Shown here piece after piece: positions 2,061 to 43,947 of a stretch of 64,000 nucleotides of DNA. Source of the DNA: Bacteroidales bacterium. GTDB taxonomy: Bacteria; Bacteroidota; Bacteroidia; Bacteroidales; DTU049. The position numbers were made by a program, and so were the translations under genes. The notes under the pieces are model-generated. The model was given only the letters and a program-made list of their open reading frames with translations, did no database searches and had not been told where the DNA came from. Location of the stretch: assembly GCA_012520175.1 (NCBI GenBank), contig JAAYOU010000029.1, positions 8,867-72,866 on the forward strand, read 5' to 3'. Position 1 is the first letter of the stretch; every line of letters begins with the position of its first letter.

Positions 2061-5000
2061 TTATTTTTTTACTATTTGTATAATACCAACACTTTCACCC
2101 ATTTCTACACGCACCATATAGATTCCTGCAGGCAAGCTAGAAATATTAATTTCTCGCACATCGCCAGTGTTTTGAGCTACAATAGAGCTAAGCATATTAT
2201 ATACGCTTACAGTGGTAATTGTTTCCTTTGTTTCTATGTGCAAAATGTCTTGTACAGGGTTGGGATAAACTGTAATGTTTTGAGCAGCAAAATCTTCTAT
2301 GCTTGTTTCTACAAACTCTGCCACAATATTTACGTCTGCTACAACAATGTGTGTGCTGCCATTTTCAATTGTTTCGCCATTTAAAGTTAATGTTTGAAGT
2401 TTATAATCTGGGTTTGGTGTTGCAGTAATAATAATTGCTGCACCTTTATCAACTTTGCTGCCAATCGCTACCGGAGATCCGTTTGCTGTTACGCTAAGCG
2501 TACCGTGTTCTGGTATGTTGTAAGTTACGGTATATTGTGCTGTTTCTTCAACAAATTCTGCTACAATATTTACATCTGCCACAACAATATGAGTGTTGCC
2601 GCTTTCAAAAGGATTGCCATTTACAGTTAGAGTTTTAAGTTTGTAACCATTGTCTGGTGTAGCTGTAATAGTTATTTCGCTGTTTTTATCAACTTTGTCG
2701 CCACTTACGAGTGCTATTGTATCTAGCATTACGCTAATTGTGCCATTTTCAGGCGTTGCGAAGGCAATAGTAAACTGCTCGATTGGTATTTCCTCAAACT
2801 CAGCGGTTATTGTAACATCAAACGCAGGCATTTCAAATGTCATGCCGTTGAGCGGAACTTCTTCCGTTTCTTCGCCGGTTTTGTAAGCACGCAAAGAGCC
2901 ATCTTTCAATTTGTAGCCATCATCGGCACTAGCAGTTATGGTTACAGTTTCGCTGAATACAACTGGGCTTGCTGGTATAAATGACAGAGAACCGTTGGTA
3001 ATACCCTCAGCGATAGTAACTGCATAGCTGTTAATATCCCACTTAGCATACAACGTAAAACTGCTAGTTACCTCTGTATTAAAGTCGTATTCGTTTTGTA
3101 GCTCAGTATCAGTAAACCAGCCAATAAAGGTATAGCCCTCTTTGGTGGGAGTTTCTGGTTCAGTGAGTTTGTCTCCGTGGTTTATGGAGGTATCAGCTAT
3201 TGTGCTACCGCCATTAGTGTTAAAGGTTATGGTGTAAACCTTTATTTGCCACTTAGCATACAGTGTAAAACTGCTAGTTACCTCTGTATTAAAGTCGTAT
3301 TCGTTTTGTAGCTCGGGGTCGCTGTACCAACTCGCAAAGGTATAGCCCTCTTTAGTGGGAGCTTCTGGTTCGGTGAGTTTGTTGCCATGAGCAACGGTAA
3401 CGTTATCAACTGCAGTTCCACCATTAGTATTAAAGCTGATAATGTAAGCAGGTACTATCTTCACTGTATCTTTGATTATATTGCCAGCAGTATCGCAGAC
3501 AGCTTTTTCGTTAGGATTGAACACAGCACCAGCAGGCTCTACAATTACACAACTAATAAGTTCTACATCATTAAAGTTACGGATTGAGCCATAGTTTGTA
3601 CCAATTGCCGAAACTGTGGCATTTTCAATGGTAAGAGTATCAAGAAAATCGCCGGCAAAACCGCATGTTTTCCCTATTGTATTTACTGTACAGTTACGTA
3701 TAGTTAAAGATGAGCTATTGAAGGTAGATATCCCTGATTTATTTTTAGCGTTTATGTTAAGCGTACCGCTACCATCAATGGTTGCAGAATTTCCAGAAAA
3801 ATGAACTGTTGGGTAGTTCACACTTGATAAGTTATTATTGCCCACAATATCAATTTTTAGGTTTTCAATTTTATTGTTGATAGCATAAAGCTCTCCTGTT
3901 GCACAAATTGTAGCATCTTCAAGTTTTAGAGTTTTTGTATCAGGGTTGTAGCTTACCGAACCTTCTACACCATTTATAACGCTTAAATCATCTTTATTAA
4001 GATTTGTTACCTGTACATCACAAATCCAAAGGTCATAATAAATAATCGGCTTTATTTTTACTGTATCCGTGATGATATTACCATCAGCATCACAAATTGC
4101 CTTTATACCGTTGTTAAATACTGCTCTGGCAGGTTCAAAAATGCCACAGTTGACAAATTTTATATTTTTAAAGCCCATAATAGTACCGTCTTTTACCCCA
4201 TAAGATTTTAAAGATGCGGTTATCGTAGCGTTGTCAAAGGTAAGTGTCTTTTCGCCTGAATCACCAAAAATAGCGTTTCTACCACCAGTAACTTCAACAG
4301 TACAGTTTTTAATAGTTAGCGAGCCATTTTTCATAAATATTGCTCGGTCTTCTGCGTGAGTATTTGATAATTTAAGCGTCCCGCTACCCTGAATTGTGCC
4401 TGAAGTGTTATTTTGGAAAGCTATAGGAGACCATTCGTTACCAGTTAGATTATTAGTGCCGGAAACATCTATTTTCATATTATCAATTAGGGAAAGAATG
4501 CAGCACGTTTGCCCTGTGGTGGACATTGTTGCTCCGTTAAGCGTAAGAGTTTTCGAGTCAGAGTTGTAGCTTACCGTACCTGTTACACCATTGATAACGC
4601 TTAGGTCGTCCTTATTGGCATCAGTTACTTGCTCGCCACAAATCCATAAATCATATTTAGATATACCAATCTTTACTTCGCTTTTAATTACATTGCCATC
4701 AGCATCACAAACGGAGCCATTTATTATCTGTGCATCAGCAGGCGAGATAAAAGAGCAACCATTAAGGGTTATTCCTCCGGAAAATTTAGTAATAGAGCCA
4801 TAACTCCCTTTGGCTGTAACGGTAGCACCATTAACAATAAGAGAAGCATCCTCTGCTCCTTGGAACCCGAATCTTGCACCGATAGCGTTTACCGTACATT
4901 TCTTTATGGTAAGAGTGCTTCGATAAACCCATATCGTATTGGTGTAATATGCCTCTGAACTCACATTTAATGTGCCGCTGCCTTGGATAGTAACATCATT

Positions 5001-5369
5001 ATTAATATGTATTGCACAGGAACATCCTTCTTTAGCTGTTATCGTGTTGTTTCCTATAAGCTCTATTTTCAGTCCATTACATTGGGATGAAAAACAATAG
5101 AATGATGCAGATTTGATGGTAGCGCCGTTAAGCGTAAGGGTGTTGGTGGTAGAGTTATAGTTTACTATACCCGTTACCGTACAGCCATTTGTACCATTGA
5201 TAACGGTTAGGTCGCCCTTGTTGGCATCTGTTACCTGTACGCCGCAAATTTTAAGGTCGTACTCTGCTGCTTGCAAATTAGCAGCACCGAATAGCATCGC
5301 CACGAAAAAAGCAAGCGTAAATCTGAATTTGTAATTGTTTTTTTTCATTTTATTTTGATATTTTTTCAT
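2061..5369 (-). CDS. modular T9SS-secreted surface protein (3 N-terminal ~200 aa repeats, 2 Listeria-Bacteroides/Flg_new repeats, 3 InlB-B-like Ig repeats, T9SS C-terminal domain)
   Basis: Signal peptide. Three units begin YDL(K/W)ICG.QVT..NK.DL.VING. Two copies of the NTNGG....V..G.KLTEPE.PTKEGYTF..W..D.ELQNEYDFNTEVTSSFTLYAKW repeat. The C-terminus VYPNPVQDILHIE...GIYMVRVEMGESVGIIQIVKK is typical of a type A sorting domain. Confidence 0.9.
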   Translation of the reverse strand: MKKYQNKMKKNNYKFRFTLAFFVAMLFGAANLQAAEYDLKICGVQVTDANKGDLTVINGTNGCTVTGIVNYNSTTNTLTLNGATIKSASFYCFSSQCNGLKIELIGNNTITAKEGCSCAIHINNDVTIQGSGTLNVSSEAYYTNTIWVYRSTLTIKKCTVNAIGARFGFQGAEDASLIVNGATVTAKGSYGSITKFSGGITLNGCSFISPADAQIINGSVCDADGNVIKSEVKIGISKYDLWICGEQVTDANKDDLSVINGVTGTVSYNSDSKTLTLNGATMSTTGQTCCILSLIDNMKIDVSGTNNLTGNEWSPIAFQNNTSGTIQGSGTLKLSNTHAEDRAIFMKNGSLTIKNCTVEVTGGRNAIFGDSGEKTLTFDNATITASLKSYGVKDGTIMGFKNIKFVNCGIFEPARAVFNNGIKAICDADGNIITDTVKIKPIIYYDLWICDVQVTNLNKDDLSVINGVEGSVSYNPDTKTLKLEDATICATGELYAINNKIENLKIDIVGNNNLSSVNYPTVHFSGNSATIDGSGTLNINAKNKSGISTFNSSSLTIRNCTVNTIGKTCGFAGDFLDTLTIENATVSAIGTNYGSIRNFNDVELISCVIVEPAGAVFNPNEKAVCDTAGNIIKDTVKIVPAYIISFNTNGGTAVDNVTVAHGNKLTEPEAPTKEGYTFASWYSDPELQNEYDFNTEVTSSFTLYAKWQIKVYTITFNTNGGSTIADTSINHGDKLTEPETPTKEGYTFIGWFTDTELQNEYDFNTEVTSSFTLYAKWDINSYAVTIAEGITNGSLSFIPASPVVFSETVTITASADDGYKLKDGSLRAYKTGEETEEVPLNGMTFEMPAFDVTITAEFEEIPIEQFTIAFATPENGTISVMLDTIALVSGDKVDKNSEITITATPDNGYKLKTLTVNGNPFESGNTHIVVADVNIVAEFVEETAQYTVTYNIPEHGTLSVTANGSPVAIGSKVDKGAAIIITATPNPDYKLQTLTLNGETIENGSTHIVVADVNIVAEFVETSIEDFAAQNITVYPNPVQDILHIETKETITTVSVYNMLSSIVAQNTGDVREINISSLPAGIYMVRVEMGESVGIIQIVKK

Positions 5370-13714: not shown

Positions 13715-13722
13715 TATTTTTG
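13715..13722 (+). promoter_or_regulatory. candidate -7 box (TAnnTTTG) of the Dlt-like operon
   Basis: tatttttg at 13715-13722, 10 nt upstream of the ATG at 13733. Confidence 0.4.
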
Positions 13723-13732: not shown

Positions 13733-15178
13733 ATGATATTTCCTTTTCTTCCAGAATTAAGCAACAATAATGCTATTTGCGTAAAAGACAAATTCTTTAC
13801 GTACACTCAATTTCGTAAAAGAATTGACAGTATCGCCTTTGAGCTTTCTACACACAATTACAAAAACGCAGCAATTGGTCTTGTAGCTTCTGACCACGTT
13901 GACACATACGCAGCAATAATGGCAATTTGGGCTACGGGAAACATATTTGTACCTTTAAATCCATATCATCCAAAAGACCGCATAGAAAGCATTGTTAGCC
14001 AATCAGAAATTAAATTGATTTTGTATAGTGTCGAAAAAGTTAATTCTGATAAAAATTTTGTTTGCACCTTAGACTTAGAAGAAAAAGGATTTACCGACAT
14101 TGCACAACCTAAAAATGAAGACATAGCCTACATTTTATTTACATCAGGAAGCACTGGTTTGCCAAAAGGTGTGCCTGTTTCCTACGGCAACGTGCGTTCC
14201 TTCCTAAAAGGATTAGATGCAATTCAATACGAGCTAGATGTTGACAGCAAGTTTTTGCAAATGTTTGATTTAAGTTTTGATTTGAGCATTGTTTCCATTT
14301 TAGCTCCAATGATTTTTAAAGGCTGCATGTTCACAGTCCCTAACAACGACATAAAGTATCAAACTGTTTACAGATTGCTAGAAGAATACGATATAGAGTT
14401 TGCTATTGTAGTTCCAAGCATTATTACATACCTACGCCCTTATTTTGAAGAAATTTGTCTCGAAAAAATGAAACATCTTTGCTTTTCTGCCGAGGCATCG
14501 AAAGATACAATAACTTCTGAATTTATGAAATGCTGCCCAAATGCGAAATTTTATAATTTATACGGACCAACAGAAGCAACCATTTTCGCACTATGGTATA
14601 ACATTCCAACAAAAAATATTCCTTCCCAAAACGGCATTATAAGCATTGGACAGCCTACAATTGAAACAGAAGCACTTATTGTTGACGATGAAAATAATAT
14701 TGTTAAAGACGGAGAAAAAGGCGAATTATTGCTGAGTGGAAACCAAGTTATAAGCTCATATTTAAAAGACGAAGAAAAGGACAAAGAAGCTTTTGTTTAC
14801 ATAAACAATAAAAGATATTACCGAACTGGCGATATTTGCTCAAAAGACGGAGACCTTTACTTTTATCTTGGAAGAAAAGACTATCAAGTAAAAGTTCGCG
14901 GATTCCGCGTAGAACTTAGCGAAATTGAACACCATATTACATCGTATTGCAATGAAAATCGCACTGTAGCTCTTGCTTCAAAAGACGAAAACGAAAGCGA
15001 AATAATTGTAGCAATAATTGAAAGTGAAGAAATTGACACTAAAAAACTAAACGAATATTTAAAAAGCAAAATGCCTTTTTACATGATTCCGTCAAAATAT
15101 TATTTCATGTCTAATTTTCCGCTAAATAACAATGGCAAAATAAACAGAAAAGAAATAGAAAAAATATTTTTAAACTAA
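13733..15178 (+). CDS. stand-alone adenylation enzyme, DltA-like (amino acid/acid--carrier protein ligase)
   Basis: ANL-superfamily core motifs LFTSGSTGLPKGV, NLYGPTEAT, YRTGD, GRKDYQVKVRGFRVELSEIE and NNNGKINRK. At 481 aa it is about the size of DltA. Confidence 0.85.
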   Translation: MIFPFLPELSNNNAICVKDKFFTYTQFRKRIDSIAFELSTHNYKNAAIGLVASDHVDTYAAIMAIWATGNIFVPLNPYHPKDRIESIVSQSEIKLILYSVEKVNSDKNFVCTLDLEEKGFTDIAQPKNEDIAYILFTSGSTGLPKGVPVSYGNVRSFLKGLDAIQYELDVDSKFLQMFDLSFDLSIVSILAPMIFKGCMFTVPNNDIKYQTVYRLLEEYDIEFAIVVPSIITYLRPYFEEICLEKMKHLCFSAEASKDTITSEFMKCCPNAKFYNLYGPTEATIFALWYNIPTKNIPSQNGIISIGQPTIETEALIVDDENNIVKDGEKGELLLSGNQVISSYLKDEEKDKEAFVYINNKRYYRTGDICSKDGDLYFYLGRKDYQVKVRGFRVELSEIEHHITSYCNENRTVALASKDENESEIIVAIIESEEIDTKKLNEYLKSKMPFYMIPSKYYFMSNFPLNNNGKINRKEIEKIFLN

Positions 15179-15867
15179 TGAAACCAGATTACACAATTAG
15201 ACGAGCAACAAAAAGCGACTATATGTTTTTAGCCGAAGCCGTTATTAAAGCTGACTTAGGAACAGAAGGCAAAAACTCAAGCTATGCTGCTTTGTTGGGT
15301 GTAAGCAACGAAACGGCGATTAATTCTATTGCTGCAATGATGGACGAAGAGGTTGGCGGCTGCGAATTTTGCCCAACGACATTTCTTGTCGCAGAGTGCG
15401 AAAACAAGCCTGTTGCCTGCGTTTCATCATGGATTGAAGGAGAAAACGACATTTCGTCATGGCAAATTCGCACTGCTCTAATAAGAGAATATTTCCCAAA
15501 AGGCTCTATTGAACACATTTTAAAACTTAGCGAGCTAACTAATGAAGTAATGGTGCACAGAACTGATGGAGCTTTGCAAATAGAGTCAGTGTTTGTTTCT
15601 CCGGAACATCGAGGACATGGATTGGCGTCAGAACTTATTAAAGCTCATGTTATTGACGCTCACAATAAAAATACTAGTGCAAAAATTGTAGAATTAATGA
15701 CTTATACAAACAATGAATCTGCTATTAATTCTTATTCAAAACTTGGATTTTCTATTATAAGCAAAACATGTAGTAATGATTCTAAAGCTTTGGATTTTTT
15801 TCCGCACAACAGCATGGTTTTGATGCAAGTTGAATTTGAAAAATTATTAAAACATATAAAAATATGA
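15178..15867 (+). CDS. GNAT-family N-acetyltransferase
   Basis: Acetyl-CoA binding motif VSPEHRGHGLASELI. The start overlaps the upstream stop (TAATG). Confidence 0.7.
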   Translation: MKPDYTIRRATKSDYMFLAEAVIKADLGTEGKNSSYAALLGVSNETAINSIAAMMDEEVGGCEFCPTTFLVAECENKPVACVSSWIEGENDISSWQIRTALIREYFPKGSIEHILKLSELTNEVMVHRTDGALQIESVFVSPEHRGHGLASELIKAHVIDAHNKNTSAKIVELMTYTNNESAINSYSKLGFSIISKTCSNDSKALDFFPHNSMVLMQVEFEKLLKHIKI

Positions 15868-16109
15868 AAAACGAAGAAATATCAAATAAGGTTCAAGAAA
15901 TATTTAGAGATGTATTTCAAGCTCCAACCTTAGAAATAAACCCTGAAATGACAGCATCTGATGTTGAAAAATGGGACAGCCTAACGCATTTAACTATGAT
16001 TGCAAAAGTGGAAGAGGTTTTCGGGTTTAAATTTAAATTGAAAGAAATGATCAAGATGAAAAACGTGGGAGATATGTTAAATATTATAAGCGAAAAAACT
16101 AATTCATAA
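15864..16109 (+). CDS. acyl/aminoacyl carrier protein (DltC-like)
   Basis: 81 aa with a phosphopantetheine attachment context EKWDSLTHLTMI. ATGA overlap with the upstream gene. Confidence 0.8.
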   Translation: MKNEEISNKVQEIFRDVFQAPTLEINPEMTASDVEKWDSLTHLTMIAKVEEVFGFKFKLKEMIKMKNVGDMLNIISEKTNS

Positions 16110-16110
16110 A

Positions 16111-17583
16111 ATGAAAAGATTTCAAGTATTATTAATTATTTTATTAAGTGGATTATTATTGCTTGCTGCATCATATTTTTGGCCCAAAGATGATGTTAAA
16201 TTTGGCAAACATGTAATAAAATTTATACCTAAAAATGAAATATTAAGGTTTAAAGTTCAAGAAAGCTCTCAAAATGTGGACAGCATCATTGCGGCGTTGG
16301 AATCGCGTGCGTATGGCATTAACGAAGATAATATAAAACGCATGAGTATATTAGATGAATCCATTTTTTCATCAAGTCTTTTTTTAGAAAATCCTGAAAC
16401 TGGCAATGGAGAAACAGCTTTAAGCAACTTCTTTAAAGCTCTACAAAAAACAGACTCAACACTTATTCGCATAGGGCATTATGGCGATTCGCAGATAGAG
16501 GGAGACCGCATTACAAGCATTATTCGAATAATGTTTCAAGATAAATTTGGCGGAAACGGCGTGGGATATGTTCCTATAGATGACATAACAGATCCTGTAA
16601 GCTACACTAGAAGCTGTAGTCCGAACTGGGTGCGATATACTGTTTTTCACAATAGATCTTCAAAAGGGCTTTACAACAATGGAGGCTGTGTTTTTCGCTA
16701 TCGTTTTGTAGTGCCAGAAAGCACTAGAGACAGCATTTCAGACAAAGGCGACACAATAAAAATAAAAGTTCCTGCTGCGTCATATTCTGACGCTACTCTT
16801 TTTCTAAGGCTTTTCAGAGGCTATAGCAGTATGTCTATTTGGTACGGCAATGGGACAGAAAAATCAAATTTAAAAATATATAATAGCAAAAACAATGAGC
16901 TTTTAGCTAATGTTTCCTTAAACTCAGAAGACCTTTTTAATGTTTTAAAAATTCCGCTAACGCAAAATGCCACAACAATAAAATGCGTGTTTACTGGTCC
17001 TAGCCCAGAAATATATGGATTTAGCTTTGACCCGCTAAAAGGCGTTCAGTTTGACAATTACGGACTACGCGGTCATGGCGGCGAAGGAATTTTAAGTATT
17101 TCATCAAGCTTTTTAAATGTTCAATTCGTAAAACTTAATAATCAACTAGCTATTTTACAATTTGGCGGCAATGTAACACCATACGTTAAAAACGAATCAT
17201 CTTTAAATGGCGTAAAGCAAAGCTATAATAGGCTGTATGCACATTTCCGAAAAGCTATGCCTTCCGGCTCTGTATTGGCAATTGGCGTAAACGATGTAGC
17301 ACGCAGCGTTGGAGGCACATACGTGTCTTATCCAATGGTGGGTCGCATTCGTGATGTTCAAAAAGAAGTTGCCCTACAAAACGGATGTGCGTTTTTTGAC
17401 CTTTACAAGCTGATGGGTGGCGAAAACTCCGTGTTGTCTTGGCATAAAAAAGGCTGGGCATCAAGAGATGGGCATTTTAGCGATCGCGGTCGCGAAATTG
17501 TTGTAAACGAATTATTTATTGCAATAATGAGTGAGTACAACAAATTTCTTATTCATGGAACTAATTTAAAAAATGAGAAATAA
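16111..17583 (+). CDS. membrane-anchored SGNH/GDSL-fold protein (DltD/PatB-like candidate transferase)
   Basis: N-terminal TM segment. SGNH blocks GHYGDSQIEGD, QFGGN, GVNDV and RDGHFSDRG. Confidence 0.7.
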   Translation: MKRFQVLLIILLSGLLLLAASYFWPKDDVKFGKHVIKFIPKNEILRFKVQESSQNVDSIIAALESRAYGINEDNIKRMSILDESIFSSSLFLENPETGNGETALSNFFKALQKTDSTLIRIGHYGDSQIEGDRITSIIRIMFQDKFGGNGVGYVPIDDITDPVSYTRSCSPNWVRYTVFHNRSSKGLYNNGGCVFRYRFVVPESTRDSISDKGDTIKIKVPAASYSDATLFLRLFRGYSSMSIWYGNGTEKSNLKIYNSKNNELLANVSLNSEDLFNVLKIPLTQNATTIKCVFTGPSPEIYGFSFDPLKGVQFDNYGLRGHGGEGILSISSSFLNVQFVKLNNQLAILQFGGNVTPYVKNESSLNGVKQSYNRLYAHFRKAMPSGSVLAIGVNDVARSVGGTYVSYPMVGRIRDVQKEVALQNGCAFFDLYKLMGGENSVLSWHKKGWASRDGHFSDRGREIVVNELFIAIMSEYNKFLIHGTNLKNEK

Positions 17584-19561
17584 AACAAACATATTATTTT
17601 TCTTCTTATTTGGATTTTTTGCATTCACTTTCAATTGCTATGCACAAAAGGATTATAGCAATGTTGAGTATTTAAAAGAATCCTTAGCTTATAGTGATTT
17701 TTACGAATTTATCAAATACGATAAAAACATGCTCGAATGGCAGGATGTAAACGTAATTTCTCCTTTTTTTGAAAAATTAAAAAACGCTGACAAAGATAAA
17801 GTTGTTATTCTTCATATTGGCGACTCACATATTCAAAGCGACATTGGAGCAGGCACAACAAGAGCTTTGTTGCAAAAAATTTTTGGTGTTGGTGGTAGAG
17901 GAATTGTGTTTCCATATCAAATTGCAAAAACACATTCAGCATTTGACTATTATGCTAAATATTCAGGAACATGGATTGCTTCAAAAAATGTTGAACTAAA
18001 GCCAAAGCTAAATATTGGAATTAGCGGTATCACTTGTTTTACAAATGATTCCTCTGCAAACTTTCAATTAATTTTTAAAAACCGTTATTACTCAATTCAT
18101 CCAAGTTTTACCAAACTGCGCTTGTATTGCCATAAAGGAAAAGAAAGTTTTGATATAAAAATACGCTCTGACAAAACAAAAGAATGGATTGATGTAAATT
18201 GCAGTTCAAAAGACACTTTGCCCTACGTGGAAATCTTATTACCAATTTCTTTTGATACTTTGTTCGTGGAAATAAACAAAACTTCAGAAGAACAAAAATA
18301 TTTTGAACTTTATGGTATAGAAATTCAAGGAATAAAAAATTCAGGAATTCAGTATATAAGTGTTGGTATTAATGGTGCTGGATATAATAGTTTTTTCAAT
18401 CAAAATTTGATGAAAAATCAATTGAAATTTATTAATCCAGACATGGTTATTTTTGATCTTGGAATAAATGATTTTTACAGAGGTGCATTTAATTACCAAT
18501 ACGTGATGAGTAGCATAAACAAGGCTATTGCTCTTTTTAAAGAAACATGCCCTAACTCCGTTTTTGTTTTACCAAACGCACAAGACATTTATTATAGAGG
18601 CAGGAACATTACAAACTGCAAAAATTACAGCACACTTACCCGACTAATTGCCAAAGAACAAAACATTGTCCTGTATGATTATTTTAATATTTCAGGAGGA
18701 CCTCAATCAATGCTTCTTTGGTCGAAAAATGGACTTTCTCAACGAGATAAAGTTCATTTAAGCTACACTGGCTACAAAACAAAAGGAGAACTTTTTTGTA
18801 ACGCTATTTTAAACTCATACATAACATATTTATCCAAAAAACCTGATAGCTTATTGGTGTTGAACGACTGTATAGACACAACAAATTTCCACAATTGGAT
18901 AATAAACAAATCTACTTACTATAACCGAAAACAAATAGAAACATCTGACAAGATAAATAGTTATAAAGACAAACCAATTGTTGCCAGCAAACCAGCTTTA
19001 TCAAGCGATGGAAAATATTATATTGTTCGTTCTGGAGACAACTTGGGCGTTATAGCTAATAAATTTGGCGTTAGCGTATCCAATTTGCAAAACTGGAACA
19101 ATTTAAAATCAACCACTATTTATCCTGGGCAAAAACTTTTGGTGGGCAGCGGTTCAAGCGGAAGTGTAAGTGTTAGCGCCAATACAAAAACAGGAGTTAA
19201 AACAACAACTCAGCAAGGTGCAAAAAAAATCGTTTACACAATAAAAAAAGGCGACAATTTATTTGCTATTGCCAAAAATTTTAATGTTTCAATAGACAAT
19301 ATAAAACAATGGAACGGGCTCTCTTCCAACAATATTACTGCGGGTAAAAGTTTAGTTATTTATTCTTCTGTATCCGCTCCAAAAACTACAACTCAAACTA
19401 GCAGTTCATCAAAACCCAGAAATATATCTTATGTGGTAAAAAGCGGTGATTCTTTATGGTCAATAGCAAATAAATACGGAACAACCGTAGAGCGCATAAA
19501 AAAAGATAATAAATTAAATTCTGACAAACTGATTTTAGGACAAAAATTAATCATTAATTAA
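17573..19561 (+). CDS. secreted SGNH/GDSL-fold protein with three C-terminal LysM domains
   Basis: Signal peptide. SGNH blocks LHIGDSHIQSD, GINDF and RDKVHLS. Three LysM units: YYIVRSGDNLGVIANKFGV..., VYTIKKGDNLFAIAKNFNV... and SYVVKSGDSLWSIANKYGT... Confidence 0.8.
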   Translation: MRNKTNILFFFLFGFFAFTFNCYAQKDYSNVEYLKESLAYSDFYEFIKYDKNMLEWQDVNVISPFFEKLKNADKDKVVILHIGDSHIQSDIGAGTTRALLQKIFGVGGRGIVFPYQIAKTHSAFDYYAKYSGTWIASKNVELKPKLNIGISGITCFTNDSSANFQLIFKNRYYSIHPSFTKLRLYCHKGKESFDIKIRSDKTKEWIDVNCSSKDTLPYVEILLPISFDTLFVEINKTSEEQKYFELYGIEIQGIKNSGIQYISVGINGAGYNSFFNQNLMKNQLKFINPDMVIFDLGINDFYRGAFNYQYVMSSINKAIALFKETCPNSVFVLPNAQDIYYRGRNITNCKNYSTLTRLIAKEQNIVLYDYFNISGGPQSMLLWSKNGLSQRDKVHLSYTGYKTKGELFCNAILNSYITYLSKKPDSLLVLNDCIDTTNFHNWIINKSTYYNRKQIETSDKINSYKDKPIVASKPALSSDGKYYIVRSGDNLGVIANKFGVSVSNLQNWNNLKSTTIYPGQKLLVGSGSSGSVSVSANTKTGVKTTTQQGAKKIVYTIKKGDNLFAIAKNFNVSIDNIKQWNGLSSNNITAGKSLVIYSSVSAPKTTTQTSSSSKPRNISYVVKSGDSLWSIANKYGTTVERIKKDNKLNSDKLILGQKLIIN

Positions 19562-19566
19562 TAAAC

Positions 19567-21057
19567 ATGAATTTTTCAATTTCTGAATTCATATCATCTT
19601 TAAGGTATTTACCAGACCAACCTTTGTTGTTTCAATCGGTAACTTTTTTTATACTTTTCGCATTCTTTTATTTACTGTATGCTTTATGCTTCAACAACAG
19701 AGCTATGCGCAATGGGGTTTTGCTCCTGTTCGGATTATATTTTTATTATAAAATCAGTGGTTTTTTTGTAGGCGTAATGGTTTTAATGGCTACAATAGAC
19801 TATTTTATTGGTATTGGCATTTATAAAAGCAAAAATCCGGCAAGTAAAAAATTTCTTTTAGTTTTATCTGTTTTAATAAATGTTGGAGCTCTTTTTTACT
19901 TTAAATACACCAATTTTTTAATTGAAACATGGACAGGAATTTTCCACCCGGGCACAGAGCCATTAGTTTTAAAAATTGTTCAACCGCTCGGAATTTCTTA
20001 TTATGTTTTTAAATCTTTAACATACATCTTTGATATACACAGAGAAGTAATAGAATATCCTGAGAAAAATTGGTTTAGATACGTTTTGTATGTCTCTTTC
20101 TTCCCAAATATTTTAGCAGGACCTATCTCAAAAGCAAGAGATTTATTGCCTCAATTTGTCCAAAAACCAATCATTGACAAAGAGACACTTAGCAAAGGCT
20201 TTTTCTTAATAATGCTTGGGCTTATAAAAAAAGTAGTTTTTGCCGATTATTTAGGTTCAAACCTTGTTGATAGAGTTTTTGAAAGCCCACAATATTTCAC
20301 AGGTATAGACGCACTCATGGCTGCTTACGGTGGTTTGATTCAATTATACTTTGACTTTGCAGGATATACTGACATGATGGTAGGCTTTGCTCTTTTGCTT
20401 GGATATACTATCCAGCACAACTTCAACAAACCATTCCTAGCAGGCAATATAACAGCGTTTTGGAGAAGATGGCACATTACACTTTACAGTTGGCTAAATG
20501 AATATTTATATCAACCAATGGCTTTTGCATGGCGACGAGGCGGAAAAATAATGATATTGCTTGCTGTTTTTATTACATTTTTTGTCTCCGGATTATGGCA
20601 TGGAGCTTCACTTACGTTTGTGGTTTGGGGTTTGCTGCACGGCGCTGCAATTTCGTGGGACGTAGTCAGCCAAAAAGGAAGAGATAATGTTAAAAAATGG
20701 ATGCCAAAAGCAATATACAGCTTTTTAAGTATTTTTATAACCTTCCATTTTTTGGTATTTTCAGCAGTTTTGATAAATGTGCCCAACTTAAGTGAAGCAT
20801 CTAATTTTTACAATCTTATCTTGCAAACAGATCTTTCATTGTTTCCAAAGTGGCTCGACATCTATTTTTATCCGTTTTTAATAATGGTTATTGGGCTGTT
20901 TTTGCAGTATTTGCCAATAAAATTTTACACGGGAATTTTTAACAGCTATTCAAAACTGCACTGGACGTTAAAAGCTATTGTTTTTTCATTGCTAGTTATT
21001 GTGCTTTATCAGCTATATAGCTCAGACGCGATGCCTTTTATTTATATACAGTTCTAA
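19567..21057 (+). CDS. MBOAT-family membrane O-acyltransferase (DltB/AlgI/PatA-like)
   Basis: Polytopic, 496 aa. It has the conserved FWRRWHITL and GLWHG (catalytic His region) motifs typical of AlgI/DltB. Confidence 0.85.
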   Translation: MNFSISEFISSLRYLPDQPLLFQSVTFFILFAFFYLLYALCFNNRAMRNGVLLLFGLYFYYKISGFFVGVMVLMATIDYFIGIGIYKSKNPASKKFLLVLSVLINVGALFYFKYTNFLIETWTGIFHPGTEPLVLKIVQPLGISYYVFKSLTYIFDIHREVIEYPEKNWFRYVLYVSFFPNILAGPISKARDLLPQFVQKPIIDKETLSKGFFLIMLGLIKKVVFADYLGSNLVDRVFESPQYFTGIDALMAAYGGLIQLYFDFAGYTDMMVGFALLLGYTIQHNFNKPFLAGNITAFWRRWHITLYSWLNEYLYQPMAFAWRRGGKIMILLAVFITFFVSGLWHGASLTFVVWGLLHGAAISWDVVSQKGRDNVKKWMPKAIYSFLSIFITFHFLVFSAVLINVPNLSEASNFYNLILQTDLSLFPKWLDIYFYPFLIMVIGLFLQYLPIKFYTGIFNSYSKLHWTLKAIVFSLLVIVLYQLYSSDAMPFIYIQF

Positions 21058-21062
21058 TAAAA

Positions 21063-22904
21063 TTACTCAACAGTAACAGATTTTGCTAAGTTTCTTGGCT
21101 GGTCAACATTACAACCACGCAATATTGCAATATGATAAGCCAAAAGTTGCAATGGAATTGTAGCTAAGATTGGAACTAAAAACTCCTCTGTTTCTGGAAT
21201 TTCTATTGAATAATCGCTCATTTCTTTCACTGTGGTATCGCCAGCAGTAACGATTGAAATAATGCTACCATTTCTTGCTTTTACCTCTTGGATATTTGAA
21301 ACAATTTTTTCATATGTTCCTTTGTTTGTTGCAATTACAACCACAGGCATCTGTTCATCAATTAATGCTATTGGACCATGCTTCATTTCTGCTGCTGGAT
21401 AGCCTTCTGCATGAATATAGCTTATTTCTTTTAGTTTTAAAGCACCTTCCATTGCTACAGGATAATTATATCCACGGCCTAAATAAAGGAAGTTGCGAGC
21501 ATCTTTAAAATTTTGAGCAATTTTTTCTACAATACCTTCTACATTTTTCAATGTCGTTTTTACTTTTTCAGGAATTGAGTGAAACTCCTCTATATATTTT
21601 ATGTATTTCTCTTCATCAATAATATTTCGTTTTCTTCCAAGCATTAATGCTATCATAGTTAAAATTGTAACCTGAGCCGTAAATGCTTTTGTAGAAGCCA
21701 CTCCTATTTCCGGACCAGCATGGGTATAACTTCCTGCATGTGTTGCTCTTGCTATTGAAGATCCAACAACATTACAAATGCCAAAAATTGTAGCACCTTT
21801 AGATTTTGCGAGATTAACCGCTGCCAAAGTATCAGCTGTTTCTCCAGACTGGCTTATTGCAAAAACAATATCATCTTTATTGATTATAGGATTTCTATAC
21901 CTAAATTCTGAAGCGTATTCAACCTCAACACTAATTCTAGCTAAATCTTCAAATAAATATTCTCCCACCAAACCCGCATGCCAAGAGGTTCCACACGCAA
22001 CAATAATAATTCTTTTTGCCTCACATAGCTTATCAATATATCTCTCTATGCCTCCAACCAAAATTTCTTTTTTTGATATCGACAATCTTCCCCTCATGCT
22101 ATCTCGAATAGAATTAGGCTGCTCATTAATTTCTTTAAGCATAAAATGAGGATAGCCACCTTTTTCAATTGCTTCAATATTCAATTCTAACTTCTGAATA
22201 TAAGGTGTTTTATCAATGTTTTTTATTGTTTTTATCCTAACATCTTTTCCTCTTTCAATAATCGCCATTTCTTCGTCTTCCAAATAGATTACATCTTTTG
22301 TGTATTCTACAATAGGCGTAGCATCTGAAGCAACAAAAAACTCATCTTTTCCAATACCAATTACCATTGGACTCGCCTTTTTTGCAATAATTAGCATATC
22401 TGGATTTTCTTCGGAGATAACCACGATAGCATAAGCTCCAACAACTTGATTTAAAGATATTCTAACAGCTTCTTCCAAGCTTGTTTTTTCATTTTTTTGA
22501 ATATCTTCAATTAATAGAATTAAAACTTCAGTGTCTGTATTGCTTTTAAACTCATATCCTCTGTTTATAAGTTCAGCTTTTAATACTGCATAGTTTTCAA
22601 TAATTCCGTTATGAATTATTGCATGTTTTCCTGATTGCGACAAATGAGGATGTGCATTAATATCATTTGGCTCTCCGTGAGTAGCCCAGCGCGTATGGCC
22701 AATTCCCATCGTACCTTTAATGTTTTTGTCTGCAACAAGATTTTCAAGGTCATTAACCTTGCCATGACTTTTATAAACCCTTAAGTCTCCATTTAAAATG
22801 GCAATTCCAGCACTATCATATCCACGATATTCGAGCCTTTTAAGTCCGTTTATAATTATCGGGTAAGCTTCATTATTACCCAAGTAACCAACTATTCCAC
22901 ACAT
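21063..22904 (-). CDS. glmS: glutamine--fructose-6-phosphate aminotransferase (isomerizing)
   Basis: N-terminal MCGIVGY (catalytic Cys2), two SIS domains and the C-terminal ..AKSVTVE. Confidence 0.97.
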   Translation of the reverse strand: MCGIVGYLGNNEAYPIIINGLKRLEYRGYDSAGIAILNGDLRVYKSHGKVNDLENLVADKNIKGTMGIGHTRWATHGEPNDINAHPHLSQSGKHAIIHNGIIENYAVLKAELINRGYEFKSNTDTEVLILLIEDIQKNEKTSLEEAVRISLNQVVGAYAIVVISEENPDMLIIAKKASPMVIGIGKDEFFVASDATPIVEYTKDVIYLEDEEMAIIERGKDVRIKTIKNIDKTPYIQKLELNIEAIEKGGYPHFMLKEINEQPNSIRDSMRGRLSISKKEILVGGIERYIDKLCEAKRIIIVACGTSWHAGLVGEYLFEDLARISVEVEYASEFRYRNPIINKDDIVFAISQSGETADTLAAVNLAKSKGATIFGICNVVGSSIARATHAGSYTHAGPEIGVASTKAFTAQVTILTMIALMLGRKRNIIDEEKYIKYIEEFHSIPEKVKTTLKNVEGIVEKIAQNFKDARNFLYLGRGYNYPVAMEGALKLKEISYIHAEGYPAAEMKHGPIALIDEQMPVVVIATNKGTYEKIVSNIQEVKARNGSIISIVTAGDTTVKEMSDYSIEIPETEEFLVPILATIPLQLLAYHIAILRGCNVDQPRNLAKSVTVE

Positions 22905-22916: not shown

Positions 22917-24227
22917 TTATTTTTGAATAGGGGTGTATGTTATTTCTAGACGCATTGGGTTTGTGCTTTTTGGGCCATTTAAAACGACTCGATTTGCATA
23001 AACCGAAGAGCCACTTACCAACAAAACAAATCCAAAAGGTGTTTCACCCCCAGTAATTATTTTTTGAATCTGCTTTGTCATTATAAAACGATAAGCGTTC
23101 TTTCCTTTGTCAAACTTGCCAAAAGGATCGCTGCTAGCGTCTAATAATGTAAAATATTTTCCTGCTTCATTCATTTTTACTAAACCCAATGCAGCTGGGC
23201 GAGGATATTCTTCTTCATTAACAGAAGCATCTACGGGCAAAATTAATTCTGCTCTGTTTATTACTATTGAAAAATCCTTATTTAATAATTTTATGCTTGG
23301 AAGTTTAAATACTACTTCTGTTCCAGCAAGCGGTTGTAAAAACAATTTTTGTTGTCCAAGCAATGTATCACCGTTTAATTGTCCTAACAAATCGGCAGAA
23401 GCTCCTGCATAAGCAAAATGCTCAAAATTGCAGTAACGAGCTGATTTTGTAGAAATATTTAGTCTGTATTTTGAAGTATCTAAGTCATTATGGTAGTATA
23501 TTGTCAGCCCAGAATATTGCGAAACAATGTTTAACACTGATATTGAGCCATTTGCTCCCGAAACAGGCAGAACGCAAATGCCATGAAAAAACTGCTGGAA
23601 AACATTATCAGATGCTAAGTGTCCTGCTAAATTAGCATCAATTATTCTTTGTCCAAAACTTTTGTCAAGAGGAATTCTTAATTGAGGTCCAAGTTTTTTC
23701 CCTTCAACAATAACGCTGTCTTTCGCATTAGGCGTATAAGTGTAAGTTCCCAATAACTCTCCTGCATTTATCGGCGAAAAAGAATAATAATTACTATCTA
23801 TTTTAATATTGTTTTGCAAATCCCTTACCTCCACCGTTACAGGATTATTTTGGGCTACATTTCCATAAATAGAATGATACTGTAAATGCAAAATCACGGA
23901 ATCAATTACAGGATTTGTACCAAAATCAACATTTGTGCTAGATAAAAGCAGTTGAGTGCAAAAGGAGGCTTTTAATTCTCCAAAAATTGGGTCAGTATAA
24001 TGTCCAAGAAGACTTAAGCTCGTTTCATCAGTTCTAAGGCTATCTACTTTTCTTGTATATGCATTAATAAGAATAGTGTCTGTTTTAACAACATTCAATT
24101 CATCTCCCGGTGGCTGCACATCAAGTCCAAAATCATTTTCAGGAGTACACGATACCAAAACAATAACGCAAGAAATGATACTTACAAATGCTGTTATTGT
24201 ATTTTTTATTATTTTTTTATAATTCAC
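22917..24227 (-). CDS. DUF4270-like lipoprotein
   Basis: Lipobox VLVSCT. The size (436 aa) and the position directly upstream of glmS are as commonly seen in Bacteroidota. The family call is from memory of that context. Confidence 0.55.
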   Translation of the reverse strand: MNYKKIIKNTITAFVSIISCVIVLVSCTPENDFGLDVQPPGDELNVVKTDTILINAYTRKVDSLRTDETSLSLLGHYTDPIFGELKASFCTQLLLSSTNVDFGTNPVIDSVILHLQYHSIYGNVAQNNPVTVEVRDLQNNIKIDSNYYSFSPINAGELLGTYTYTPNAKDSVIVEGKKLGPQLRIPLDKSFGQRIIDANLAGHLASDNVFQQFFHGICVLPVSGANGSISVLNIVSQYSGLTIYYHNDLDTSKYRLNISTKSARYCNFEHFAYAGASADLLGQLNGDTLLGQQKLFLQPLAGTEVVFKLPSIKLLNKDFSIVINRAELILPVDASVNEEEYPRPAALGLVKMNEAGKYFTLLDASSDPFGKFDKGKNAYRFIMTKQIQKIITGGETPFGFVLLVSGSSVYANRVVLNGPKSTNPMRLEITYTPIQK

Positions 24228-36644: not shown

Positions 36645-37628
36645 TTATGTATTGTTTTTCATAAGTTTTTCAACTGCATCAACAATTAAATCTGCTTCTA
36701 TTTTTTGCATACAATCAAAATGTTTTTTTGGACAACTATCAAAGCCTAATTTGCTGCAAGGGCGGCACTTTAAATTTTTATTTTCAATAATAACGTAATT
36801 TTCTTTTATCTCTTTTGGGAAATATGGATACATGCCAAAAGCGGGCACAGTGTTTCCCCATATTGAAACTGTTGGCTTATGCAAAGCTGCCGCAATGTGC
36901 ATCATGCCTGTGTCGTTTGAAACAACAACACTTGCATTTTTTATTATTTCAGCAGACCCATACAATGAAAGTTTTGCACAAAGATTAAATACTTTATCTG
37001 AATTGCTTTTTTCAATAAAAGAAGCATTTTCCTTATCTTTTTTTCCACCCAATAACACAACAGGTAAGCTTGATTTTTTTACAAACTCAACAATTTTTTC
37101 TTTTGGATATCGCTTTGTGAAAAAAGTGCCACCAATAGCAAAAACAATATATTTTTCTGGAATTTTAGCGTCTATTTGAATGTTTTTTGGCATAAAAAAA
37201 TCCAATCCTAAATCATCATTTTTAACATTTAAGTTTTTTACAGCTTTGAAATAGCGATCAACAATATGAATGTCTGGGAGTAAGTTTTTCTTAAATTTTG
37301 TAAAAATCCATTTGTAAAAATTAAGTTTATTGAATGTATAGTATCTTATTCTAAGCCGTGCTAACAAAGAAAAACTTCTAATGTTTTTATGCAAATCTAT
37401 CATGCAGTCAAAGTTTTCTTTTTTAAGATTGTCTGCAATTTCCATTGGCGATTTTTTTACAGTCCAGAGCTTTGTTATATAAGGATTTTCCGACATGGTT
37501 TCAGCATAACATTCCCTTGTTAAGAAATGCAATTCGTCTTCTGGTCGTTGTTTTTTCAAACATCGCACTATTGGGGAAGTTAGCACTATATCACCAATTG
37601 AACTTATTCTGTATATCAGAATTTTCAT
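36645..37628 (-). CDS. glycosyltransferase family 9 (heptosyltransferase-like)
   Basis: MKILIYRISSIGDIVLTSP start and the NDTGMMHIAAA motif. Confidence 0.8.
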   Translation of the reverse strand: MKILIYRISSIGDIVLTSPIVRCLKKQRPEDELHFLTRECYAETMSENPYITKLWTVKKSPMEIADNLKKENFDCMIDLHKNIRSFSLLARLRIRYYTFNKLNFYKWIFTKFKKNLLPDIHIVDRYFKAVKNLNVKNDDLGLDFFMPKNIQIDAKIPEKYIVFAIGGTFFTKRYPKEKIVEFVKKSSLPVVLLGGKKDKENASFIEKSNSDKVFNLCAKLSLYGSAEIIKNASVVVSNDTGMMHIAAALHKPTVSIWGNTVPAFGMYPYFPKEIKENYVIIENKNLKCRPCSKLGFDSCPKKHFDCMQKIEADLIVDAVEKLMKNNT

Positions 37629-37701
37629 TAAATTATTTTATTTTTCAAATTTTATTTTGAATACATTGCAAATTTAACTATTTTTGTATAAGCATTTACT
37701 T

Positions 37702-37827
37702 ATGAAAAAAACGAAATTTATATATTTTTTAATTTTTGTACTTGTTTTAAGTGTTTCTTTTTCTGCTTGTAATACAAAAAAGAAATTTAATCCCAAAAAA
37801 TGTAAAACTTGTCCACATTTTAATTGA
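37702..37827 (+). CDS. possible tiny lipoprotein (41 aa) with CxxC, not in ORF track
   Basis: Own translation MKKTKFIYFLIFVLVLSVSFSACNTKKKFNPKKCKTCPHFN. It has a lipobox SFSAC. There is no other support. Confidence 0.3.
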   Translation: MKKTKFIYFLIFVLVLSVSFSACNTKKKFNPKKCKTCPHFN

Positions 37828-37871
37828 TTTTAAGATATTATTTTAAAAACATATTATTTCAATGTGTTTTA

Positions 37872-37879
37872 TAAATTTG
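37872..37879 (+). promoter_or_regulatory. candidate -7 box (TAnnTTTG)
   Basis: taaatttg at 37872-37879, 4 nt before the ATG at 37884. This implies either a leaderless mRNA or use of a downstream Met. Confidence 0.3.
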
Positions 37880-37883
37880 CAAC

Positions 37884-39248
37884 ATGTTTAACCCATCGGA
37901 TTATATAACAATTTGGGACTGGTTATTGTCTTTTATATACATGGGCTTTATAATAATTGCAATGTATGTATATACTTTATTTAAAAGAAAAAACGACCCT
38001 ATATATAAATGGTTAATCCCAGCTTTTATTGTTAAATGCTTTGGAGGTATTGCTGTTTTAATGATTTATGCATATTACTATACCGAAGGCGGAGATACGT
38101 ATTCATATTTTGACAATACAAAAAAACTTCTTTTACTTACCTTTGAAAATCCACAAGGAACACTTAGGCTTCTTTTGGGAGAAAACACATACGAAACTTT
38201 TTCGTTTTTTCCATATTCAATAGGCAAACCTTGGGCAGATCTTTTTTTTGATGATAAAACTTGGGCTGTAAGTCGTTTTACCTATCCTTTTGTTCTTTTA
38301 GGATTTGGCAGAATAATGACCTCCACAATATTATTCAACGCCTACGCATTAATTGGTCCATGGAAATTGTTCAGACTGTTATGTGAGCAATATCCAGACT
38401 ATAGAAAAAAACTAGCTTTTGCAATGTTTTTTATCCCTTCGTGTATATTTTGGGGCTCTGGTCTTTATAAAGATAGCTTTACCCTATCATCTACTCTTTG
38501 GATTTTTTATTCTATTTTGCAAATTACTTTAAATAGAAAAAAAATTGGCATTAATTTATTTTTAATAATATTAAATTCATACATAATCATAAGTGTAAAA
38601 CCTTATATTTTTGTTGTTTTACTACCTGCAGTTCTTATTTTATTCACATATTCATCTGTTAAAAAAATTAAAAACAAAGCCTTAAGAATTCTTGCTCTTC
38701 CATCCTTGACAATAATAGTTTTTGCTGGAGGTCTTTTACTTTTTTCATCATTGTCTTCTTCGCTTGGACAATATGGCAACATGACTTCTATGATAAACAA
38801 ATTAATTATTACAAGAGAAGATTTTATACATAATAAGACATATAGTACAAATTTTTTTGATATTGGAGAGTTTGAGCCTTCTTTTTTAGGTGTCTTAAAA
38901 AAAGTACCATTAGCTTTTTTGTATGGATTGCTTGGTCCATTTCCGTGGCAAGTAACAAATCCCGTTATTGCAATAAGTTCTTTAGAAGGATCGTTGTTTT
39001 TAATTCTTTTTATTTTGTCTTTAAGGGCTGTTTTATTTCAAAAAAATGTATTCAAAAATCTTTCCGACCCAATCTTTATTAGTTTTCTTTTTTTCTCTGT
39101 TATTTTAGTAATTTTTGTAGGATTAAGCACCCCAAATTTTGGTTCATTAGTTCGCTATAGAATACCAGCTCTCCCTTTGTATCTTTTCTGTATGATACAT
39201 GTAATTTCATTATCAAAAAAAGAAAGCCAAAAAAGAAATATTTATTGA
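37884..39248 (+). CDS. polytopic membrane protein, unknown (candidate polymerase/ligase-type protein of the polysaccharide locus)
   Basis: More than 10 hydrophobic segments and aromatic-rich. I recognise no catalytic motif. The function is inferred only from the locus context. Confidence 0.6.
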   Translation: MFNPSDYITIWDWLLSFIYMGFIIIAMYVYTLFKRKNDPIYKWLIPAFIVKCFGGIAVLMIYAYYYTEGGDTYSYFDNTKKLLLLTFENPQGTLRLLLGENTYETFSFFPYSIGKPWADLFFDDKTWAVSRFTYPFVLLGFGRIMTSTILFNAYALIGPWKLFRLLCEQYPDYRKKLAFAMFFIPSCIFWGSGLYKDSFTLSSTLWIFYSILQITLNRKKIGINLFLIILNSYIIISVKPYIFVVLLPAVLILFTYSSVKKIKNKALRILALPSLTIIVFAGGLLLFSSLSSSLGQYGNMTSMINKLIITREDFIHNKTYSTNFFDIGEFEPSFLGVLKKVPLAFLYGLLGPFPWQVTNPVIAISSLEGSLFLILFILSLRAVLFQKNVFKNLSDPIFISFLFFSVILVIFVGLSTPNFGSLVRYRIPALPLYLFCMIHVISLSKKESQKRNIY

Positions 39249-40423: not shown

Positions 40424-40523
40424 TTACGCTTTTTATTATTTTTAAATTAGGCAAATAAAAATAATTGACGCAAAGATAATTTTTTAATTCTATAAAGTTG
40501 TTCTTGTTATAATATAAAAACTA

Positions 40524-41636: not shown

Positions 41637-41640
41637 AAAT

Positions 41641-43945: not shown

Positions 43946-43947
43946 TA

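Follow-up and report, generated by a model that had tools for sequence, protein, structure and literature searches.

MBOAT-SGNH systems are a general bacterial route for the acylation of envelope polymers, and the locus described here raises the question of which acyl group, delivered by which donor and to which polymer, such a system would transfer when its genes are joined to those of an amino acid adenylase and a carrier protein. The locus is an operon of six genes within a 64,000-nucleotide stretch of DNA from a Bacteroidales bacterium (contig JAAYOU010000029.1, positions 8,867 to 72,866; the whole stretch is termed the window). It encodes a DltA-like adenylase of the ANL family, a GNAT acetyltransferase, a carrier protein (CP), two SGNH proteins (SGNH1 and SGNH2, the latter with three LysM domains) and an MBOAT protein. 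An earlier note on this DNA read the operon as a hybrid of the Dlt and Pat systems, and this reading, with a Dlt-like donor side and a Pat-like membrane and periplasmic side, was upheld by every test run. The operon very probably encodes a CP-fed MBOAT-SGNH system for trans-envelope acyl transfer. The transferred group is probably an aminoacyl, and peptidoglycan is favoured as the acceptor with slightly less assurance. On the statement as a whole, i.e., a PatA-like system that depends on the CP and attaches a small, probably N-acetylated, amino acid to peptidoglycan by an ester bond, belief and doubt are evenly balanced. The genes, denoted A to F in their order, and the sites within and before them are as follows (window coordinates):

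13733-15178, + strand: gene A, stand-alone DltA-like ANL adenylase of 481 aa (Pfam AMP-binding, 7.7e-58)
15178-15867, + strand: gene B, GNAT of 229 aa (Pfam Acetyltransf_1, 3.5e-12)
15864-16109, + strand: gene C, CP of 81 aa (Pfam PP-binding, 1.8e-06), phosphopantetheine site Ser39 at 15978-15980
16111-17583, + strand: gene D, SGNH1 of 490 aa (Pfam Lipase_GDSL_2), catalytic Ser127 at 16489-16491
17573-19561, + strand: gene E, SGNH2 of 662 aa (Lipase_GDSL_2), Ser85 at 17825-17827, three LysM domains at about 19010-19555
19567-21057, + strand: gene F, MBOAT of 496 aa (Pfam MBOAT, 3.3e-23), catalytic His345 at 20599-20601
21037-21054, + strand: C-terminal FxYxxF motif of the MBOAT, acyl shuttle F491-I-Y493-I-Q-F496
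13715-13722, + strand: TATTTTTG, weak candidate for a Bacteroidota -7 promoter element, with the first ATG 10 nt downstream

The hallmark domains that the earlier note had recognized in the adenylase, GNAT, carrier, both SGNH proteins and MBOAT all exceeded the Pfam gathering thresholds, as did every domain call of the six genes. The central novelty lies in the MBOAT, which appears to be of the PatA type in architecture, yet is encoded in an operon with a CP. PatA auto-acetylates the Tyr of its FxYxxF motif from acetyl-CoA via an invariant His and hands the acyl group to an SGNH partner; DltB has no shuttle motif of its own and borrows it from DltX (PMC12148441). In the view of a 2025 paper on PatAB, carrier proteins are confined to Dlt, and acyl-CoA is the donor for every MBOAT whose shuttle is fused. 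The window protein can be assigned to the PatA type because of its C-terminal FxYxxF shuttle and its conserved His and Tyr residues: the pattern FxYxx[F/Y] ends 60 of the 61 complete MBOAT orthologues, while conservation is 95% or higher at H303 (in WRRWH), H345 (in WHG), F491 and Y493. What had been described as a DltB/AlgI/PatA-like MBOAT was thus narrowed, by the fused shuttle motif and both conserved His residues, to the PatA type. An identity with DltB was ruled out by the fused tail and by the score against TIGR04091 (171.8 bits, the cut-off being 375), and no DltX-like open reading frame (ORF) was seen in the operon, nor is one needed.

Do the six genes form one unit? The six same-strand genes were found at exactly the coordinates claimed for them, with all five overlapping or abutting junctions (A/B, B/C, C/D, D/E and E/F) as claimed, at -1, -4, +1, -11 and +5 nt, respectively (overlap negative, gap positive). 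The upstream neighbour, an M49-type peptidase gene, is divergent across an intergenic region of 124 nt, and the downstream neighbour, a GlmS gene, is convergent, its end being 5 nt from the MBOAT stop (window 21057-21063). Because one neighbour is divergent and the other convergent and only 5 nt away, the six genes appear to form a transcription unit of their own. An independent public assembly (ENA ERZ3460576), from a relative that is 96-98% identical, shows matching calls for all six genes between the same neighbours; contig L086 (1.45x coverage), on which the cluster is in fragments, was set aside as assembly noise. No terminator-like site was found between the MBOAT stop and the glmS end, where 5 nt are too short for a hairpin. 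Horizontal acquisition of the operon was ruled out, the G+C fraction of 0.31-0.35 being the same as in the flanks.

An alignment of homologues of SGNH2 with its LysM domains led to relatives in 288 species-representative genomes, which in nearly every case are those of uncultured Bacteroidota. The best 80 loci were examined, each of the six proteins serving as query in tblastn and profile searches. The order A-B-C-D-E-F was found in 26 of the 80 loci (18 with complete flanks), that is in at least 26 species-level genomes, with identity down to about 33%, and the labels of these loci (Bacteroidales, Marinilabiliales, Marinifilum, Lentimicrobiaceae, Chitinophagaceae, Sphingobacteriia and others) cover several Bacteroidota orders. 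Outside close relatives the flanking genes of the six-gene unit differ. Since the flanks vary while the gene order persists, the unit itself appears to be held together by selection, its co-conservation going far beyond chance, and the gene-neighbourhood check across Bacteroidota that the earlier note had proposed came out in favour of co-conserved genes. Five of the loci (L048, L060, L063, L064 and L080) have record titles that name Rhizobium sp., Agrobacterium sp. or 'Candidatus Planktophila lacus', and they are probably mislabelled bins. The arrangements met among the loci were:

A-B-C-D-E-F, the window type: 26 loci
C-D-E-F, CP only: 6 loci with full flanks
B-C-D-E-F, GNAT and CP without the adenylase: 3 loci with full flanks, 2 partial
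D-E-F, then a different adenylase, usually with a CP: about 9 loci
D-E-F alone, without CP or ANL: 2 loci with full flanks (L017, L024)
E-F or E alone: several loci

Across these genomes the SGNH1-SGNH2(LysM)-MBOAT core seems constant and the donor-loading module exchangeable, and in most loci, irrespective of the loader type, the MBOAT occurs together with a CP. In L030 and L081 (complete chromosome OY782882) the core is followed by an acetate-CoA-ligase-like enzyme (NF003313, 683 bits, E 3e-205; 13255-15137 in L030, 13375-15257 in L081) and then by an 80-aa PP-binding protein. A similar loader occurs in L021, L023, L026, L027 and L037, with two CP genes in L026 and L037. Such sister clusters would imply an acetyl-CP donor for a PatA-type MBOAT. 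In three further genomes the ANL and GNAT parts are a single ORF of 715-735 aa (L029 5856-8006, L034 465-2672 and L044 5956-8103). A conserved partner gene, e.g., for a phosphopantetheinyl transferase or an alanine racemase, was sought in the operon flanks and none was found, as the flanks differ between clades. Likewise, no third loader was found upstream of the CP-only and GNAT+CP-only clusters, where OmpA-like, histidine kinase, thiamine pyrophosphate enzyme and epimerase genes lie instead.

One may ask if the operon merely joins two unrelated adjacent modules, of which ANL-GNAT-CP would make a small metabolite derived from an N-acetyl-amino acid and SGNH1-SGNH2-MBOAT would carry out an independent, acetyl-CoA-dependent O-acetylation of peptidoglycan (OAP). 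The two D-E-F clusters that stand without CP or ANL point in this direction, since they suggest that the core may work alone. However, a gap of 1 nt from the CP stop to the SGNH1 start, an adjacency that persists in 26 or more species although their flanks vary, the presence of a different loader and CP pair right behind the MBOAT of the same core, and the recurrence of the ANL-CP-MBOAT triad elsewhere all speak against two separate modules, and we regard this explanation as very unlikely.

If one CP-fed system is assumed, the nature of the acyl group has to be sought in the donor module, first of all in the adenylase. Its description as DltA-like stood as far as the Dlt-like donor logic and the retained D235 and K517 are concerned, but the Dlt equivalog cut-offs were missed. 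The NCBIfam DltA models are the best ones for this protein (1e-87 and 2e-80), although the scores are far under the cut-offs (TIGR01734, 270.8 bits vs. 559.85; NF003417, 294.6 bits vs. 476), and the best PDB matches are DltA (207 bits) and the A-domain of LgrA module 2, specific for Gly (195 bits). The pocket code was read at PheA positions 235, 236, 239, 278, 299, 301, 322, 330, 331 and 517, with DltA sequences from the PDB alignments as references:

DLVSCSLIFK: window adenylase
D-L-x-S-x-[C/S]-[V/L]-I-[F/Y]-K: consensus of the six-gene family
D-L-M-S-[M/L/F]-C-T-V-A-K: DltA (four structures)
DIASLCIIYK: glycine module of LgrA

The window pocket is identical to that of DltA at 4 of the 10 positions, with 301, 322, 330 and 331 among the differences, while distant six-gene orthologues with the code DLMSLCVIFK match DltA at 7 of the 10. 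Within the family, DLMSLC..K is shared with DltA (3E7W, 3FCC) and ..IIYK with the glycine module of LgrA. The pocket comparison suggested in the earlier note did not return the DltA code; the pocket appears to be intermediate between DltA (D-Ala) and a glycine module, its upper part being DltA-like and its lower part filled as in the latter. D235, which contacts the α-amino group, and K517 are invariant in the adenylase family, therefore the substrate should be an α-amino acid; it would be a small residue, most likely Gly or Ala and possibly Ser.

The carrier itself had been claimed to be DltC-like on account of its DSL serine. The motif W37-D38-S39-L40 is indeed at least 90% conserved in 54 orthologues, but the protein resembles ordinary acyl carrier proteins (ACPs): with no DltC model among the NCBIfam matches and no DltC chain among 30 PDB matches (E up to 1), the assignment to DltC was dropped and the CP looks like a generic ACP-like protein. 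In the GNAT, the acetyl-CoA loop R145-G146-x-G148 and Y186 are conserved. The family profile matched primary-amine N-acetyltransferases in the PDB (PaiA, SpeG, diamine and N-alpha-acetyltransferases, Naa), although no specific GNAT subfamily emerged from this comparison, in which only the generic acetyl-CoA-binding half aligned. The GNAT gene always lies between the ANL and CP genes. This position and the ANL-GNAT fusion in three genomes favour a GNAT that would act on the same tethered intermediate, i.e., the N-acetylation of aminoacyl-S-CP, and the fusion supports the earlier suggestion that the enzyme acts on a carrier-bound group.

Could the group nevertheless be plain acetate? An OAP cluster of the layout ape1b-ape1c-pat was predicted in B. 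thetaiotaomicron, B. fragilis and P. gingivalis, and 27-69% of Bacteroides peptidoglycan was measured to be O-acetylated (Weadge et al., 2005; PMC1199599); a later review puts the figure at 56-66%. The D-E-F core shares this SGNH-SGNH-MBOAT layout and is in that sense not new, the likeness being one of gene order. An ordinary Bacteroidota OAP, in which acetyl would be loaded on the CP by the GNAT or by the acetate-CoA-ligase-like enzyme and the adenylase would be accessory or regulatory, is therefore suggested by the identical layout and the high degree of O-acetylation. It is also in line with clusters of the L081 type, where this core stands next to an acetate-activating enzyme and a CP, and with the existence of GNAT+CP clusters that have no ANL. 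A precedent exists in the loading module of CurA, whose GNAT transfers acetyl to an ACP. Yet the adenylase is conserved, translationally coupled to the GNAT and, in three genomes, fused to it, and it keeps D235, all of which fits a bystander poorly; the relatives of the GNAT are primary-amine N-acetyltransferases and not ACP loaders; and PatA takes acetyl-CoA directly, with no need for a CP (PMC12148441). Ordinary O-acetylation is thus considered unlikely, and an aminoacyl donor remains the preferred reading of the window operon.

The next step of the transfer concerns the two SGNH proteins, which are paralogues (21-25% identity in cross-matches) and both contain all four SGNH blocks (I, II, III and V). 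Residues S127, G321, N354, D453 and H455 of SGNH1 are invariant in 20 diverse sequences, and S85, G265/G268, N299, D392 and H395 of SGNH2 in 15; the catalytic Ser and His, on which the earlier reading depended, are hence present and invariant in both. SGNH1 has an N-terminal hydrophobic helix (residues 2-23) as an anchor and no other targeting domain, whereas SGNH2 starts with a signal peptide and ends in three LysM domains (Pfam 8.5e-47). The description of the latter as a secreted SGNH protein with three LysM domains was borne out by PF01476 (157.3 bits over three stretches, the cut-off being 20.9). For SGNH1, said to be anchored like DltD, the topology was confirmed, but the fold is Ape1-like.

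This was established with AlphaFold models, in which the predicted local distance difference test (pLDDT) is 80 for SGNH1 and 74 for SGNH2, with cores at 85-95. In the Foldseek comparison only Ape1 proved close to either protein, and not DltD, PatB or AlgX/AlgJ, which the earlier note had named for comparison. The top matches of SGNH1 were Ape1 structures (8gkd, 8gld and 4k3u; E about 1e-20, template modelling (TM) score 0.73-0.78), and its 36 matches with E up to 1e-3 consisted of Ape1, followed by CE2 esterases and carbohydrate-binding modules (CBMs). SGNH2 likewise matched Ape1 first (4k3u and 8gkd; E about 2e-20, TM score 0.74-0.80) and then LysM structures. The Ape1 alignments, with target-normalised TM scores, span about 375-395 columns and include the inserted β-sandwich (CBM35-like, after block I). 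The matched structures, the sole strong PDB relatives, are the O-acetylpeptidoglycan esterases of N. meningitidis and C. jejuni. No DltD, AlgX/AlgJ, PatB or OatA chain appeared at E <=1e-3 in Foldseek, and these identities were rejected for both proteins.

In the proven transferases PatB and OatA the block II Gly is replaced by Ser or Asn, and PatB has two β-hairpin 'wings'. In the window proteins the block II region contains a conserved Gly (G321 in SGNH1 and G268 in SGNH2, block II being assigned by sequence pattern and not by superposition). Because both thus appear to keep this Gly, the sequence cannot tell the writer of an ester from its eraser. Ape proteins were described by motif I, GDS(H/F), and motif VII, Dx(V/T)H (PMC1199599); SGNH2 agrees with them (GDSH and D392-K-V-H395), while SGNH1 deviates (GDSQ and D453-G-H455). 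The D-G-H of block V in SGNH1 of the window's clade is one residue shorter than the DxxH of Ape1 and of distant family members, which may alter the geometry of the triad or shift the enzyme between transferase and esterase action. By analogy, SGNH1 would be the likelier partner of the MBOAT, since PatB remains at PatA and lacks a module for glycan binding, and SGNH2 the likelier eraser, since Ape1 carries a peptidoglycan-binding module; a relay of the AlgJ/AlgX kind is the alternative.

Peptidoglycan is favoured as the target because both SGNH proteins are Ape1-like, SGNH2 has LysM domains and Ape motifs, the gene order mirrors OAP, and Bacteroides peptidoglycan is heavily O-acylated. The same mechanism could act on another acceptor, such as an exopolysaccharide, capsule, lipopolysaccharide or a polymer related to poly-N-acetylglucosamine or chitin, with the LysM domains only localising SGNH2. 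This possibility gains from a four-gene cassette, ANL-CP-MBOAT-anchored protein, that was found in the cultured Aquimarina macrocephali (L083, 9001-13141) and in a Bacteroidota contig (L084, 9001-13159). Compared with the six-gene operon, the ANL of these cassettes is 42% and the CP 40-44% identical, the MBOAT ends in a PatA-type tail (FIYFQF or FIYVQF), and the pocket code of the Aquimarina ANL, DLMSLCVIFK, is that of many six-gene orthologues. The Aquimarina cassette lies within a polysaccharide-synthesis locus with glycosyltransferases, flippase and polymerase and a second MBOAT about 5 kb downstream; the cassette of L084 adjoins divergent lipid genes of OlsB-like and OlsA-like type (Acetyltransf_5/Acyltransf_2). 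Another acceptor would also agree with the polysaccharide locus in the window and with the affinity of LysM for several N-acetylglucosamine polymers. On the other hand, the six-gene unit never lies inside a polysaccharide locus among the loci examined, its flanks being housekeeping genes, both of its SGNH proteins match only the peptidoglycan esterase Ape1, and the cassettes have no GNAT and a single transmembrane-anchored protein with neither Pfam match, Ape1 insert nor LysM, in which the motifs GDS...DGHH occur in the Aquimarina copy only. A different acceptor is considered rather unlikely, and peptidoglycan is retained as the target. CP-fed MBOATs of the PatA type seem to be a general, unstudied device of Bacteroidota, of which the window would hold the version with Ape1/LysM proteins and a GNAT. 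Homologues of the adenylase carry automatic annotations such as 'AMP-binding protein', 'amino acid adenylation domain-containing protein' or 'DltA'.

How would such a system operate? In the cytoplasm, the DltA-like adenylase would activate a small α-amino acid (most likely Gly or Ala) and thioesterify it to the phosphopantetheine on Ser39 of the CP, and the GNAT would N-acetylate the tethered aminoacyl group from acetyl-CoA. The MBOAT, with His345 as a base, would then take the acyl group from the CP onto Tyr493 of its own FxYxxF shuttle at the periplasmic face, from where the anchored SGNH1 would accept it on Ser127 and esterify a glycan, most plausibly at O-6 of N-acetylmuramic acid. Finally, SGNH2, held on the sacculus by its three LysM domains, would remove the ester in the role of Ape1 or act as the terminal transferase in the role of AlgX. 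Gene content, motifs, folds, synteny and the modular nature of the loader are documented by the data; the amino acid, its N-acetylation on the carrier, the acceptor and the writer and eraser roles of the SGNH proteins are what we infer within this scheme.

Several points weigh against this mechanism. Neither SGNH protein appears to carry the exchange of the block II Gly for Ser or Asn, so that both look like esterases and the transferase step is an assumption. Since LysM has an affinity for chitin and other N-acetylglucosamine polymers as well, peptidoglycan is not the sole possible acceptor, and the relatives of the ANL-CP-MBOAT triad in polysaccharide loci indicate that the donor module is not peptidoglycan-specific. 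As for the donor, the pocket code cannot separate Gly, D-Ala, L-Ala and Ser, nor can chirality be called; the Cys that provides the D-selectivity of DltA is replaced by Ser in the window's own clade; and the clusters with GNAT and CP but no adenylase (3 loci, full flanks) fit direct acetyl loading at least equally well. Ape1c of the Bacteroides OAP lacks the β-rich insert of about 100 aa that is present in SGNH2 (PMC1199599). The host organism is uncultured, and the function given here for the operon is a predicted one.

The likeness to characterized systems is in each case partial. With the PatA/PatB/Ape1 pathway of OAP the operon shares the invariant His and fused FxYxxF of the MBOAT, Ape1-fold partners and the implied peptidoglycan target; it adds the CP, adenylase and GNAT to a pathway in which PatA uses acetyl-CoA and which is stated without a CP, shows no fold match of the PatB type, has an SGNH protein with three LysM domains, and implies an acyl group other than acetate. 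Shared with DltABCD(X), the system for the D-alanylation of teichoic acids in Firmicutes, are an adenylase that loads an amino acid on a CP feeding a MBOAT, the Tyr shuttle, an SGNH protein and part of the pocket code (D-L-x-S...K, with DLMSLC in many orthologues). The differences are that all Dlt equivalog models score below cut-off, the CP bears no likeness to DltC, the SGNH proteins resemble Ape1 and not DltD, a GNAT and a second, LysM-bearing SGNH protein are added, and the host is a diderm without teichoic acids; moreover, DltB of about 400 aa works with the microprotein DltX, whereas the window MBOAT of 496 aa has its own shuttle FIYIQF. The alginate system AlgI/AlgJ/AlgF/AlgX is similar in architecture (a MBOAT, an anchored SGNH-like protein and a soluble one with a CBM), but the operon has no AlgJ/AlgX fold matches, no AlgF-like gene, LysM in place of the AlgX CBM, and a CP donor. 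AlmEFG, which adds glycine to lipid A of Vibrio cholerae, shares the DltA-like adenylase and CP, the small amino acid and an ester in a Gram-negative envelope; AlmG, however, is an acyltransferase of the LpxL type at the cytoplasmic face, and AlmEFG has no MBOAT, SGNH, LysM or GNAT. Full-text literature searches returned no description of the six-gene cluster, and the view that no characterized system has this exact composition held in the literature searched.

Regarding expression, the TAnnTTTG box to which the earlier note had pointed, TATTTTTG, is present at 13715 as the sole + strand match in the divergent intergenic region. Because the motif is as frequent in the window as expected by chance (125 occurrences vs. 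122 +/- 11), its value as promoter evidence did not hold: the box is weak evidence, compatible with a Bacteroidota promoter and no proof of one. Scans for promoters of the sigma-70 type gave results at or below chance and were not used, and a search of the window against Rfam found no RNA families. Next to glmS lies a gene for a DUF4270 protein (22917-24227, - strand), which is labelled BamH (PF14092) in the precomputed annotations of a public collection. The polysaccharide locus of the window, about 15 kb from the operon (36645-49616, mostly - strand), has a G+C content of 26-27% against about 33% elsewhere and encodes a heptosyltransferase-like GT9, an AT3 acyltransferase, a GT4, two GT2 and a pyruvyl transferase. 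Three large proteins of 1102, 1778 and 1264 aa (2061-5369, - strand; 52952-58288, + strand; 59964-63758, - strand) contain PKD, Ig or Listeria-Bacteroides repeats, end in a Por_Secre_tail and represent cargo of type IX secretion, which confirms the Bacteroidota host.

What is new in the operon is the combination of a PatA-type MBOAT with a CP donor, the two Ape1-fold proteins without PatB, the LysM-tethered member, the embedded or fused GNAT and the exchangeable loaders; the family of each part and the overall kind of system, i.e., MBOAT-SGNH acylation of the envelope, were already known. A broader view can be put forward only tentatively and seems rather doubtful as a whole: Bacteroidota would possess a modular family of CP-fed PatA-type MBOATs, of which the window member writes a hitherto undescribed mark, an O-linked glycyl or alanyl ester, probably N-acetylated, on the glycan strand of peptidoglycan, a LysM-tethered Ape1-like protein edits or erases it, and sister clusters swap the loader, e.g., for an acetate-activating ligase, and write another acyl group with the same periplasmic machinery. 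The cluster and its relatives would break the rule stated in the 2025 PatAB paper and show the donor cassette as an exchangeable module. The cluster also bears on the heavy O-acylation of Bacteroides peptidoglycan, as it shows two Ape1-like proteins and no PatB to be the standard arrangement in Bacteroidota. If an aminoacyl or N-acetyl-aminoacyl ester of peptidoglycan is indeed made, it would be a new entry in the short list of glycan-strand modifications, and it would probably affect the sensitivity to lysozyme and lytic transglycosylases and the innate immune sensing of Bacteroidota walls.

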